A DNA stretch of 64,000 nucleotides from Patescibacteria group bacterium (GCA_038064695.1 JBBTSO010000004.1:15792-79791), one strand, 5' to 3'; counted from the stretch's first letter, positions 28,049 to 30,603 are shown. Notes: generated by a model from the sequence alone, not told the origin. Made by a program: numbers and translations.

Positions 28049-28647
28049 AAACTCATCATTTATCACGCATTACTCATTGCAGCGTAAAAGTATTTTGTGC
28101 TTTCTCACTGGTTGAGTTGTTGGTGGTGCTCAGTATTTTAACGATGGTTTCAAGCGTAGTGCTCGCCAACCACTCACGTTTTAACGGAACCGTTCTTTTA
28201 GGCTCGCTCGCGTATGACATTGCGCTTTCGGTGCGTCAGGCACAAGTATATGGTTTATCAGTTCGCCAATACTCCGATGATTTCCACGTGGGATACGGGG
28301 TTCATTTTTCGGATGCGAGTTCCTATATTTTTTTTGTTGATAGAAACATAAATCAGCAGTACGACGAAGGAGAGGATTCCATCGTGCAAACCTATACCGT
28401 TGGGCGTGGGCACATCATTCAGTCGTTCTGCGGAGTCACTGCCAACGGCACTGAACGCTGTTCAGATTCAGAGACTCCCATAACGCACCTCGATGTTGTT
28501 TTTTTGCGCCCCGACCCCGATGCGGTAATGAGCTCTAACGAACCTGGCATGCTCTCGCAAGGTATTATTACCGTAGCGGCGCCTTCGGGAGACACGCGTT
28601 CCATCGTAGTTGCCTCAACGGGACAAATTTCAGTACAGAATCCATGA
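28039..28647 (+). CDS. pseudopilin / minor pilin 1
   Basis: Prepilin N-terminus ...CAFSLVELLVVLSILTM; overlaps pilD end. Its stop overlaps the next start in an ATGA junction. Confidence 0.55.
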   Translation: MAIKTHHLSRITHCSVKVFCAFSLVELLVVLSILTMVSSVVLANHSRFNGTVLLGSLAYDIALSVRQAQVYGLSVRQYSDDFHVGYGVHFSDASSYIFFVDRNINQQYDEGEDSIVQTYTVGRGHIIQSFCGVTANGTERCSDSETPITHLDVVFLRPDPDAVMSSNEPGMLSQGIITVAAPSGDTRSIVVASTGQISVQNP

Positions 28648-29330
28648 AAAAATTAGTATCCAGTATCCAGTATCCAGTATCCAGGGAAGCGCACAAGCGG
28701 GACGTTTTTCATACTCAATACTCAATACTCAATATCCAATACTCCAGTGTGAAGCCCGGCTTCACGTTGATTGAAATGATGGTGGCTGTTTCTATTTTTT
28801 CAATTGTTATGTTAATTGGCGTCGGTGCGCTGCTTTCACTCGTTGACGCCAACCGTCGCGCGCAGGCAATAAATTCTGTTATCAATAACATGAATGCAGC
28901 GTTAGAAAGTATGTCGCGCTCAGTTCGTGTGGGAACTACCTACCACTGCCGTACGAACGCGGTGGTGCCGAGTCCTGAAGAAATTTCTGAAACGCAAGAC
29001 TGCGCAGCTGGCGGAGGGTTACTGCTTGCTTTTGAGGCGTCAGACGGTGATCGCTCTGACCCTGAAGATCAAATTGTGTACCGACTCAACACGCTTCAGT
29101 CGCAGTTAGAACGTTCACTTGATTCGGGGGCAACGTGGGTTGCACTCACTGCACCTGAAGTGACCATAGAGTCGTTTGAATTTTTTGTCATAGGATCTTC
29201 ACCACTCTCCGCGGGAGATGCCATTCAACCGCGCGTGCTTATGAAGATCCGTGGATCGGCGCCCGTACCGGGAGGTTCAACCAATTTCAGCGTGCAGGCG
29301 TCAGTGACACAGAGAATTATTGATATATGA
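28644..29330 (+). CDS. pseudopilin / minor pilin 2 with heptamer-repeat leader
   Basis: GFTLIEMMVAVSIF prepilin motif. The 5' 100 nt is the shared repeat element. An alternative GTG start at 28749 would give a short MKPG|F leader. Confidence 0.55.
   Translation: MKKLVSSIQYPVSREAHKRDVFHTQYSILNIQYSSVKPGFTLIEMMVAVSIFSIVMLIGVGALLSLVDANRRAQAINSVINNMNAALESMSRSVRVGTTYHCRTNAVVPSPEEISETQDCAAGGGLLLAFEASDGDRSDPEDQIVYRLNTLQSQLERSLDSGATWVALTAPEVTIESFEFFVIGSSPLSAGDAIQPRVLMKIRGSAPVPGGSTNFSVQASVTQRIIDI
28655..28745 (+). repeat. heptamer tandem-repeat element copy 1: (AGTATCC)x4 - 28-nt spacer - (ATACTCA)x5
   Basis: Read directly: agtatcc x4 at 28655-28682; atactca/atatcca/atactcc units at 28711-28745. Confidence 0.9.
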
Positions 29331-29974
29331 AAAAATTAGTATCCAGTATCCAGTATCCAGTATCCAGGGAAACGCAAAAGCGGGACGTTTTTCATACTCA
29401 ATACTCTCTACGGGGTTTCACTTCGACCAGAGAGGGAGAAAATGAAAACGAGTTTTCATTTTTCCCGAACGCCGTCGAAGCAAAAGCGCAACGCGCTTTT
29501 ACGCTGATAGAAACATTGGTGGCTATTTCTATTCTCCTTCTTTCGCTCGCTGCTCCACTTTCCATTGCGGCACAATCACTACGCTCTGCCTATTACGCAC
29601 GAGATCAAATCACCGCGTTCTATCTTGCACAAGAGGCCGTGGAGTACGTGCGGGCGGTGCGTGACCAGAATTACCTCGGCGGTATTCCATGGCTCACGGG
29701 GATTGAAGATTGTGTTGATACAACGTGCGCGGTTGATTTCACCAACTTTAGTCATGAAGTGTGCGCAGGTGACTGCCCACTCCTTTTGCTTGGAAACACC
29801 TCAGGTCTCTTTAACCTAAGTTCAGGAGACCCAACGATCTATCGTCGCACCTTGGAAATAAACTCCATCGAAGGAATATCGGACGAGGTGACCGTGTTGG
29901 TTCGTGTCTCGTGGCAGAGCGGAAAAATAGAACGAGAGTTTGAAGTTCAAGAACAACTCTTTAATTGGCTATGA
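29327..29974 (+). CDS. pseudopilin / minor pilin 3 with heptamer-repeat leader
   Basis: AFTLIETLVAISILL motif. The same 5' element is present, and there is no alternative in-frame start before the prepilin helix. Confidence 0.5.
   Translation: MKKLVSSIQYPVSRETQKRDVFHTQYSLRGFTSTREGENENEFSFFPNAVEAKAQRAFTLIETLVAISILLLSLAAPLSIAAQSLRSAYYARDQITAFYLAQEAVEYVRAVRDQNYLGGIPWLTGIEDCVDTTCAVDFTNFSHEVCAGDCPLLLLGNTSGLFNLSSGDPTIYRRTLEINSIEGISDEVTVLVRVSWQSGKIEREFEVQEQLFNWL
29338..29407 (+). repeat. heptamer tandem-repeat element copy 2: (AGTATCC)x4 - spacer - (ATACTCA)x2
   Basis: agtatcc x4 at 29338-29365; atactca, atactct at 29394-29407. Confidence 0.9.
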
Positions 29975-30603
29975 AAAACAAATTAGTATCCAGTATCCAG
30001 TATCCAGTATCCAGGGAAACGCAAAAGCGGGACGTTCTTCATACTCAATACTCAATACTCAATACTCAACACTCTCCACGCGGATTCACTTCGACAAGCG
30101 AGAACGATGCGAATGGATACATTCGTGATGTTCGAGCGCCGTCGAGGCAAACCCTGAAAGGGTTTACGCTACTCATCGCTGTTCTCATTTCAGGCATTCT
30201 GCTTGCGTTAGGGTTTGCCATTTATAACATTGCCTCAAAAGATATTATTCTCTCCTCATCCGGAAGAGAGTCACAGTTTGCCTTTTATGCCGCCGATTCA
30301 GGGACCGAGTGCGCCCTCTACTGGGACTATCAATTCAGTGCGTTTGCTACAACATCGGCATTGGCTGAAATAAATTGTGGCGATGAAGTGGTGCCGCTCA
30401 CCCGTACCTACGACGCGGTGACGGGAGATTATCGAACCACGTTTTCTTTTTCGCTTGGCTCTGCTCCCGTTGACGCATGTTCCAGCGTGGAAGTAACTAA
30501 AGTTGAGAGCCCCGTTCAAACGGTGGTGGTTGCCTCAGGGTACAACACGTGTGTCGCTGAGAACCCACGTCGCATTGAGCGTGCGATTCGAGTACAATAC
30601 TGA
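29971..30603 (+). CDS. pseudopilin / minor pilin 4 with heptamer-repeat leader
   Basis: [15 protein letters not shown] motif. ATG at 29971 overlaps the previous stop (ATGA). The same 5' element is present. Confidence 0.5.
29985..30075 (+). repeat. heptamer tandem-repeat element copy 3: (AGTATCC)x4 - spacer - (ATACTCA)x4 plus a variant unit
   Basis: agtatcc x4 at 29985-30012; atactca x4 and acactct at 30041-30075. Confidence 0.9.

Follow-up and report, generated by a model that had tools for sequence, protein, structure and literature searches.

Heptanucleotide inverted arrays and conserved hairpins carried in frame in the leaders of three minor-pilin genes of a Patescibacteria bacterium

A stretch of 64,000 nt from a metagenome-assembled genome (MAG) of the Patescibacteria (candidate phyla radiation, CPR; GCA_038064695.1, JBBTSO010000004.1:15792-79791), hereafter the window, contains three consecutive minor-pilin genes at the end of a type IV pilus cluster, and each of these genes opens with a common 5' segment of heptanucleotide repeats that lies inside the coding sequence. 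The structure is real and unusual. On balance we read it as repeat DNA, probably mobile or spread by gene conversion, which is carried in frame in the one coding segment that is discarded after translation; any effect of the elements on expression would then be a by-product. The original prediction, made from the sequence alone, had correctly recognized tandem prepilin-like genes with a common 5' segment of 7-nt repeats and explained the repeats by phase variation through slipped-strand frameshifting. Every proxy that was run came out against this mechanism, and the evidence points in the direction of the alternative that the prediction had also named, an element at the DNA or RNA level. Module coordinates are counted in the window, and the contigs and loci used for comparison are labelled with L-numbers (L015, L121, L207 etc.).

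The repeat modules in the leaders

Minor pilin gene 1 (28644-29330, + strand) encodes 228 aa from the ATG that overlaps the preceding stop codon or 193 aa from an alternative GTG at 28749 (MKPGFTLIE); both start models are present in public annotations, as P0121 and P0122. Minor pilin gene 2 (29327-29974, +) encodes 215 aa and the minor pilin-like gene 3 (29971-30603, +; NCBI MEK7613647.1) 210 aa. The G↓FTLIE motif with its hydrophobic helix was recognized above the cut-off of PF07963 in gene 1 (N_methyl motif at residues 39-58) and gene 2 (residues 53-76). Gene 3 had no Pfam match and its GFTLLIAVL lacks Glu5, yet orthologs occupy the same position in all clusters. The start codons (ATG at 28644, 29327 and 29971) share bases with the TGA before them in an ATGA, as had been predicted, and are followed by A-rich codons and then by the repeats. 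For genes 2 and 3 this ATG is the sole in-frame start, with not a single other in-frame ATG, GTG or TTG ahead of the cleavage site, thus the repeats must be translated and have to be held stop-free and in frame. Use of the upstream ATG, about which the prediction had been undecided, is therefore needed in these two genes, and the internal GTG start downstream of the repeats is an option for gene 1 alone. The leaders up to the G/A↓F site comprise 39, 57 and 64 residues in genes 1, 2 and 3, and the leader of gene 2 ends in Ala, not in Gly. Prepilin leaders usually have 6-26 residues (PMC4471445), and the suspicion of an unusually long leader was thus justified. Public gene calls disagree on the starts, with 228 vs 193 vs 183 aa and with 215 vs 151 aa.

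Module 1 is a pair of heptad arrays in inverted orientation. It covers 28655-28745 (+) in gene 1, with (AGTATCC)x4 at 28655-28682, the spacer at 28683-28710 and five units of the ATACTCA type at 28711-28745; 29338-29407 (+) in gene 2, with (AGTATCC)x4 at 29338-29365, a 28-nt spacer and ATACTCA ATACTCT at 29394-29407; and 29985-30075 (+) in gene 3, with (AGTATCC)x4 at 29985-30012, a 28-nt spacer and (ATACTCA)x4 plus ACACTCT at 30041-30075. The 7-nt units, in length not a multiple of three, were located at +12 from the ATG in all three genes, and Tandem Repeats Finder (TRF) reported 4.3 copies at 100% identity for the left array of each gene. The spacer of 28 nt after each left array reads AGGGAA(G/A)CGCA(C/A)AAGCGGGACGTT(T/C)TTC. 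In the 64 kb, the 21-mer (AGTATCC)x3 matched only the three leader sites, for 0.00 matches expected from shuffles. Right arrays of five, two and five units, as counted in the prediction, are obtained only if imperfect units are included (three perfect and two imperfect in gene 1, one and one in gene 2, four and one in gene 3); the perfect units number 3, 1 and 4. Pairwise, the common 5' segments are 92-97% identical, the mature-coding parts 48-53%. Left and right arrays are partly complementary by their AGUAU/AUACU cores, the shared segment is thus an interrupted hairpin. Its predicted fold consists of 5-bp AGUAU/AUACU helices with 2x2 CC/CA loops between them and a small hairpin of the spacer in the centre, and the predicted folds of the three leader elements were stabler than those of shuffles (z = -2.9, -3.9 and -4.4).

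In genes 2 and 3 the nucleotide similarity extends past module 1 through a second and a third conserved hairpin; neither these hairpins nor the complementarity of the arrays had been noted in the prediction. Module 2 comprises 68 nt in gene 2 (29417-29484, +; TTCAC-TTCGAC-CAGAGAG-(inner hairpin)-CGAACGCC-GTCGAAG-CAAA), where it shows covariation and scored 99.5 bits with a covariance model (CM). The copy in gene 3 comprises 67 nt (30085-30151, +), has a different inner hairpin and carries the 3' motif in another frame than gene 2. The consensus TTCAC-TTCGAC-(C/A)AG(A/C)GAG-(variable inner hairpin)-CGA(A/G)CGCC-GTCGA(A/G)G-CAAA includes a symmetric, conserved internal loop, GCGAG/CGAGC, which we would read as tandem G.A. 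Module 3 is a stem-loop of 7-8 bp that closes the leader in all three genes and extends with its 3' arm into the Phe codon: GTGAAGCC-C-GGCTTCAC in gene 1 (28749-28765, +), which spans the V-K-P-G-F-T codons, AAAAGCGC-AAC-GCGCTTTT in gene 2 (29482-29500, +) and AAACCCT-GAA-AGGGTTT in gene 3 (30149-30165, +), the last codon being Phe in the latter two. The ortholog of the gene-1 stem-loop in L130, GTGAAACC-T-GGTTTCAC, exhibits paired changes at synonymous sites. For modules 2 and 3, seven copies from five contigs were compared. Standard pairs were present in 91% of the cells and 18 of the 31 pairs had changed on both sides; none of 500 shuffles attained the observed value, and slid partners paired in 37-49%.

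Owing to the different length of module 2 (68 nt in gene 2, 67 nt in gene 3), the motif CGCCGTCGA(A/G)GCAAA yields N-A-V-E-A-K in the former gene and A-P-S-R-Q-T in the latter; the frame is restored downstream. The leader elements are conserved as nucleic acid, not as peptide. Two leader subtypes among the orthologs, ...AAEAKAPRAFT and ...VRAPSKQxLKGFT, fit the two frames of one DNA motif, as checked on the DNA of five contigs, and the protein-only hits of both subtypes would likewise represent two frames of one motif. Rfam matched only tRNAs and a tmRNA in the window, and the best hit within 28500-30300 at a permissive threshold had E=3.4. The idea that all prepilin genes have a stem-loop where their cleavage site is encoded was rejected (mean z -0.27 over 211 sites); the stem-loop thus belongs to the inserts and not to pilin genes as such.

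Copies elsewhere and inserts in related clusters

The window and related contigs were searched with the CM of modules 2 and 3. Three copies of module 2 were found on the - strand in a tRNA cluster, at 41392-41452, 41290-41384 and 41003-41090 (29.8, 50.2 and 40.9 bits). These tandem copies lie on both sides of tRNA-Asp (41147-41221, +) and adjoin tRNA-Thr (41446, +), antisense to the tRNAs; the one at 41003-41090 has an inner hairpin that hardly differs from that of gene 2. Matches to module 2 adjoin tRNA genes also in L123 and, weakly, in L125. Together with the two pilin leaders, module 2 has five clear copies in 64 kb, and a weak module-2-like hairpin lies between pilC and the major pilin gene (26419-26523, +; 20 bits, E=0.006, filters off). 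The architecture of module 1 occurs in three genic and three intergenic copies. An intergenic heptad inverted array between an ftsX-like gene and pyrG (44305-44412, +; (AGTATTN)x6 ... (ATACNNN)x3) has the AGTAT/ATACT core of the pilin element in the opposite orientation. Another one (20251-20363, +; (TAGTNNT)x4 ... (NACTANC)x4.7) fills the spacer between pilM and the next gene, its right array stops exactly at the ATG at 20364, and it resembles in this position the TAACTGA arrays just upstream of start codons in Beggiatoaceae. The third (35071-35184, +; (TAGTGGT)x3 ... (ACTAGNN)x4) is located upstream of tRNA-Met, brackets the best sigma-70-like match of the region, TTGAAA-16-TAGAAT (35114-35141), and reaches with its right arm the first base of the tRNA (35185). 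At the beginning of pyrG (44414-44480) we observed an apparent N-terminal extension of about 22 residues (MSSSRETQTQKRGRAPLKKKKNH) with a hairpin in frame directly behind the start codon, GCTCTCGCG...GCGCGGGAGAGC.

The contig L015 of another Patescibacteria genome has an AGTATCC/ATACT inverted array (4618-4702) in frame inside a - strand open reading frame (ORF) at 4358-5131, which is glycosyltransferase-like, with the family assigned by eye. The array encodes the peptide VSSIQYPVS...SILNT, identical to the leader peptide, within this unrelated enzyme. The copies of module 2 near tRNA genes, the intergenic arrays and the array in L015 indicate that the elements are dispersed and not pilin-specific. 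Modules 1 and 2 have several copies in unrelated contexts, and in the leaders they represent hairpin-forming, stop-free insertions in frame. The prediction had mentioned a generic repetitive extragenic palindromic (REP) sequence unrelated to surface genes as an outcome adverse to its own reading, and this outcome was largely observed. A scan of a genome collection for (AGTATCC)x3 returned at least 120 loci, mostly in Bacteroidota, Desulfobacterota and Chloroflexota, which are long generic heptamer microsatellites; L015 alone was informative among them. Among the loci L001-L120 (e.g., L005, L026, L027, L033, L042), long intergenic (AGTATCC)/(AGCATCC) arrays are common in these three phyla, some as inverted pairs round a short spacer and mostly with a CAG(T/C) core. 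A protein search with a synthetic leader peptide yielded only spurious ORFs of 43-83 aa over repeat arrays.

Among the related pilus clusters, L121 has module 1 in gene 2 only, with exactly (AGTATCC)x4 and a 28-nt spacer; in comparison to the window, the element is 88% identical, the mature part 62% on the DNA level and the mature protein 55%. Gene 2 of L122 has a decayed copy of module 1 in which the frame is still open. Genes 1 and 3 of both contigs have short ordinary leaders, MNQTRKTTTKGFTLIE and MNRGFTLL, without the element. In L123, genes 1-3 present the same architecture made from another heptamer, AGCAATC/AGCATCC, in x5, x8 and x7 copies, and further heptamers were found in leaders of L129, L130, L153, L163, L180, L201 and L207. 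In contigs with arrays in more than one gene (L129, L153, L163, L180) the heptamer is common to these genes. Overall, most heptads share on inspection a CAG(T/C)/(A/G)CTG core with TAACTGA (= TCAGTTA). The encoded leader peptides are polar, some of them of the LSVISxQ type, and wholly different between lineages. Several arrays are without a complementary arm, e.g., in L183 and L198. L130 has module 2 twice in a row, and leaders of 88-99 residues originate from tandemly duplicated insert modules in L130 (2836-3097) and L139 (1615-1906, 2755-3049). Many syntenic clusters have short leaders (5-13 residues in many orthologs) and no inserts, thus the inserts are dispensable. At least 40 of 72 arrays were located at minor-pilin 5' ends, which make up about 7% of the 460 kb examined, and many of the remaining arrays also lie at the starts of pilin-like genes outside the search pattern.

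The same leader site is also occupied by an insert of another kind. Gene 2 of L207-L209, a 256-aa 'pilin', is an in-frame fusion of an ATG, an inverted repeat of 16-18 nt, a complete GIY-YIG ORF (PF01541), a second inverted repeat and TTACGCTCATTGAA. Gene 1 of L207 contains a derivative with these ends and an internal deletion, about 110 nt long, and gene 3 a heptad inverted array; three consecutive minor-pilin genes (L207 3339-4900, also in L208 and L209) thus have three different leader inserts. A 33-nt derivative that consists of the two inverted repeats only, and reads GFTPYHFSAKSDKGFTLIE, is present in every pilin gene of L174 and L202 and in one of L161. It is a near-perfect palindrome, CCCTTAYCACTTTT-loop-AAAAGTGRTAAGGG, at the G-F-T codons, with GGNTTYAC direct repeats on either side (L174 354-3040; L202 1719-3662; L161 1779-1815). 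A GIY-YIG nuclease gene with inverted repeats and miniature derivatives is a pattern that points to a mobile element. Its right repeat encodes K-S-G-K-G and offers a ready-made leader end, the part played by module 3 in the window; a search of the window for its inverted repeat was negative.

Proposed passenger DNA and the competing explanations

According to the favoured reading, the shared 5' segment would be non-protein passenger DNA that three prepilin genes carry in frame in their disposable leaders. The leader of 39-64 residues would stay in the cytoplasm, and the prepilin peptidase encoded at 27185-28048 would cut after the Gly or Ala at -1. The mature pilin would not be affected by the leader repeats, therefore the leader would be the one tolerant landing site in a tightly packed operon with overlapping stop and start codons. 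The arrays may change by replication slippage, of which only steps of 21 nt would survive, and the element may have spread or been homogenized among the three paralogs by a transposition-like insertion or by gene conversion. The contrast between elements of 92-97% identity and mature parts of about 50%, as well as the restriction of the element to gene 2 in L121 and L122, suggests that the spread within the genome is recent. In reverse orientation, 17 of 24 elements, including all three copies in the window, have stops in two to three frames, thus the orientation looks chosen for translatability and not for structure. The sense-strand hairpin was weaker than the antisense hairpin in 19 of 24 heptad elements (mean difference 7.9 kcal/mol, p=1e-4), and the folds of the window elements were -19.7 vs -32.7, -14.1 vs -19.4 and -20.6 vs -36.3 for sense vs antisense. 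This is not the outcome expected from selection for an mRNA hairpin. Fixed 160-nt segments upstream of all pilin sites revealed no asymmetry of sense and antisense folding; this test was too diluted, and the element-level test was used instead. The covariation among repeat copies is also expected if the hairpin serves the propagation of the element itself.

With regard to a possible transposition, the orthologous genes 1 and 3 of L121 and L122 are free of the element, and GGNTTYAC direct repeats flank hairpin inserts. Several observations weigh against passenger DNA. For modules 1 and 2, no transposase, no target-site duplication and no pair of empty and filled sites was found, with part of the ORFs of the 64-kb window scanned, and a Pfam scan of its small and unassigned ORFs detected no transposase, RAYT or GIY-YIG gene. 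The concentration of arrays at minor-pilin starts would also result from selection for a function there, and many lineages have the same architecture made from other heptads. The unaltered (AGTATCC)x4 and the spacer length of 28 nt have been kept between species whose mature parts are 62% identical on the DNA level. Finally, that the peptidase cuts off a leader of such length is a supposition.

A more far-reaching version of passenger DNA is conceivable, and we put it forward tentatively, with less than even confidence. Selfish DNA would use prepilin leaders as a dedicated landing pad, with post-translational excision of its product, and several unrelated families would have adapted to the position between the start codon and the G↓F-T-L-I-E codons. 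These families would be the heptad inverted arrays, the hairpin repeat of modules 2 and 3, and the GIY-YIG gene, bounded by terminal inverted repeats, together with its miniature derivatives. Each of them would bring a stop-free frame and its own K/R-G/A leader end, so that the prepilin peptidase removes the peptide. The GGN-TTY-ACN-CTN-ATH-GAR DNA common to all pilin genes, which includes GGNTTYACNCTNATHGAR, may be a homing target.

The main rival explanation is a cis-acting RNA device, in which hairpins right after the re-initiation codons would control the expression of the minor pilins; we consider it unlikely, but it accounts for several of the observations. It might act by translational coupling with a fixed stoichiometry, as RNase processing or stabilizer sites, or by binding of a heptad-reading protein, and the hairpins would be found in the leader because the operon, coupled by ATGA and devoid of Shine-Dalgarno (SD) sequences, leaves no intergenic space. 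The leader folds are stabler than shuffles, modules 2 and 3 are maintained by compensatory changes, and the orthologs of the gene-1 stem-loop have paired synonymous changes. The symmetric internal loop of module 2 is conserved, and arrays are concentrated at minor-pilin starts in many lineages. With an SD sequence at 2 of 37 starts, structure near the start codons should matter, and heptanucleotide arrays by start codons have been proposed as translational regulators in Beggiatoaceae (PMC4679880). Such a device is difficult to reconcile with the systematically weaker fold of module 1 on the sense strand, with module 2 being antisense to transcription near the tRNA genes and with the many orthologous clusters without any insert. 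Moreover, the arrays in L183, L198 and others lack a complementary arm, stem-loops at cleavage sites are not general, and Rfam provided no match for the elements.

As substrates for recombination, the repeats could cause unequal crossing-over that deletes or duplicates exactly one minor-pilin gene or shuffles the modules, with the consequence of a heterogeneous gene content. Direct repeats of about 75-100 nt with 92-97% identity, spaced one gene apart and each beginning at the start codon, are suited to this, the fact that leader repeats evolve in concert within a genome implies recombination between them, and module 2 is tandemly duplicated in L130. As the purpose of the repeats this is nevertheless improbable: the order and number of the minor pilins, four between the peptidase gene and ligA, are constant in L121, L122, L123, L125 and L207, and no deletion or duplication variant was present among the four assemblies of the window population.

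Phase variation would require that one 7-nt unit is gained or lost by slipped-strand mispairing, and that the frame shift turns individual minor pilins off or on. This mechanism is probably wrong for these genes, which do not appear to be ON/OFF switches, and we give it little credence. Its starting point was sound, since the unit is not a multiple of three and the arrays lie in the ORF just past the start codon, a layout that matches the proven heptanucleotide switch neuO (PMC13001214). Slippage over evolutionary time is also apparent, in the right arrays of 5/2/5 units and in the left arrays of 5/8/7 units in L123. However, the heterogeneity in repeat number that the prediction had called for was absent from the assemblies and relatives compared. 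Across the window, L210 (GCA_964357335.1), L211 and L212, four assemblies that are independent and come from three samples or more, the arrays are the same in each gene covered, and L123 equals L124, from another sample, over 1.3 kb. The contigs of L210 and L211 end at the same base inside the gene-3 repeat, which we read as an assembly break caused by the repeat, and L210 has a run of N (~2265-2316) ahead of the gene-2 repeat. Exactly four units make up the left array of each of the three paralogs and of the L121 ortholog, despite the 55% identity of the mature proteins. All of the 28 heptad arrays within 250 nt upstream of a prepilin site (207 unique sites in related clusters) were inside an ORF, in frame and stop-free. 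None was out of frame, hence ON and OFF frames do not occur side by side among these relatives, whereas neuO has 3-53 units and is OFF in 65.6% of 64 genomes (PMC13001214). The tracts are short, with four perfect units at most. The sole difference in copy number between the paralogs is three units or 21 nt, thus the frame is kept, as expected of slippage filtered for frame. Pilus assembly generally depends on minor pilins for priming; with one of them switched off the pilus would be lost and not varied, which counts against phase variation as well. Low-level phase switching and a recombination-driven change in gene content possibly make minor contributions.

A functional leader peptide, e.g., a cytoplasmic docking, chaperone or timing signal for minor pilins, would explain why the frame is always open and is compatible with the polar character of the heptad-encoded peptides. 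It is very improbable in view of the same conserved DNA being read in two frames, the wholly different heptad peptides among lineages, the leaders of 5-13 residues in many orthologs and the identical VSSIQYPVS...SILNT inside the unrelated enzyme of L015. There is hardly any chance of a programmed translational bypass of the kind known from phage T4 gene 60 and the mitochondrial 'byp' elements, in which ribosomes would hop the hairpin from one G-F-T copy to its duplicate: matching GGN-TTY-AC codons stand on both sides of the hairpins of genes 2 and 3, and of many related genes too, but every insert is stop-free and in frame, which bypass does not require, none is unreadable as bypass elements are, and no stop follows the putative take-off site.

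Further candidates were rejected. VSRET is the peptide encoded by a parS site, but the DNA here differs from parS. For an integron attC site, inspection found neither core sites nor an integrase gene, and the gene order is fixed. The tandem G.A loop of module 2 lacks the 3-nt bulge in the right place for a K-turn. Out-of-frame ATGs inside module 2, considered with regard to frameshifting, belong to the repeat as such and recur in the copy on the tRNA side.

Genomic setting, known systems and significance

The population of the window has also been assembled from Hainich groundwater samples, and the protein of gene 2 is 100% identical to NCBI MEK7613646.1 from a Patescibacteria MAG. The type IV pilus cluster upstream of the repeat-bearing genes (19140-28048) consists of pilM (start at 19140), pilO (21017), pilB (21868), a response regulator gene (23627), pilT (24130), pilC (25198), the major pilin gene (26601) and the prepilin peptidase gene (27185-28048, +; Pfam A24_N_bact 2.7e-26, Peptidase_A24 8.9e-09). 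The dedicated assembly genes of type IV pilin-like proteins are thus nearby, and the peptidase is the enzyme expected to remove the leaders; its gene has a constant position across all syntenic clusters. Downstream of it follow four minor-pilin-like genes, then ligA and then gatCA, and related contigs retain this arrangement. SD-like sequences are nearly missing, with 2 of the 37 + strand starts in the whole window in a loose test, and ATGA overlaps between neighbouring genes are frequent. Apart from the pilus cluster, a YgjP-like metallopeptidase gene beside four large ORFs (968, 387, 393 and 655 aa) was observed at 51424-59203 (-); this gene group may be a cluster of the restriction-modification type.

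The closest known systems are the Rickettsia palindromic elements (RPEs; PMC10969869), heptanucleotide arrays such as TAACTGA (PMC4679880) and the array of neuO. RPEs are dispersed hairpin repeats that are found in frame in coding genes, where they are translated, and also in non-coding DNA (PMC10969869). Like these and like intragenic repeats related to transposable elements of the miniature inverted-repeat kind (MITEs), such as ERIC, BOX and Correia, modules 1 and 2 are present in leaders, in intergenic and tRNA-side DNA and, taking in L015, in an enzyme gene. There is no sequence relationship to RPEs, which belong to another phylum; here the inserts occupy a proteolytically removed segment, and one module is made of 7-nt tandem units. 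The window modules are putatively mobile. In neuO of the Escherichia coli K1 prophage CUS-3, a 5' variable number tandem repeat (VNTR), (AAGACTC)n, is located in the ORF after the start codon, encodes 7-residue peptide repeats and allows the full-length protein in one frame (PMC13001214). The window arrays share the heptanucleotide repeats inside the ORF directly after the start codon. Unlike in neuO, where 3-53 units vary between and within strains and about two thirds of the genomes are OFF, they have four units, do not vary among four assemblies, are always in frame and have an inverted array as partner. TAACTGA arrays of Beggiatoaceae, Cyanobacteria and Bacteroidetes are placed near start codons where SD sequences are rare; they have stops in all frames in one direction and are occasionally translated at ORF ends in the other (PMC4679880). 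Our comparison with these long simple sequence repeats relies on MacGregor 2015 including its account of Mrazek et al. 2007. TAACTGA arrays are mostly direct repeats in 5' untranslated regions, whereas the arrays of the window are inverted pairs in coding sequence that evolve in concert among paralogs.

Repeated palindromic units inside operons are likewise known as REP sequences and bacterial interspersed mosaic elements (BIMEs) and as mycobacterial interspersed repetitive units (MIRUs). The latter carry small ORFs whose ends overlap the flanking stop and start codons, so that translational coupling is preserved. REP/BIME and MIRU repeats are situated between genes, whereas here no intergenic space exists, the repeat is in the leader of the downstream gene, and neither a RAYT nor another partner enzyme was seen. 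The GIY-YIG element of L207 uses the same site between the ATG and the G-F-T codons of minor pilins, in frame, and its right end encodes K-G as module 3 does, but it has no sequence in common with the window modules, which do not encode a protein of their own. Literature searches brought up no earlier account of prepilin leaders that house repeat or mobile DNA, and nothing on heptanucleotide repeats or palindromic elements in frame in Patescibacteria.

A 7-nt repeat inside a gene for a surface structure is insufficient evidence of phase variation. The repeats of these pilin genes also have practical consequences, they break assemblies and cause inconsistent start-codon calls in public annotation. 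Leaders of 39-64 residues, and of up to about 100 in relatives, raise the question of what the prepilin peptidase of an episymbiont accepts. If prepilin leaders are indeed a landing pad for several element families, the removal of the leader would be a functional counterpart of intron or intein removal. The minor-pilin genes possibly represent a clean case of repeat or mobile DNA that persists in the coding sequence of very small, packed genomes, and it may persist there because a housekeeping protease discards the product.

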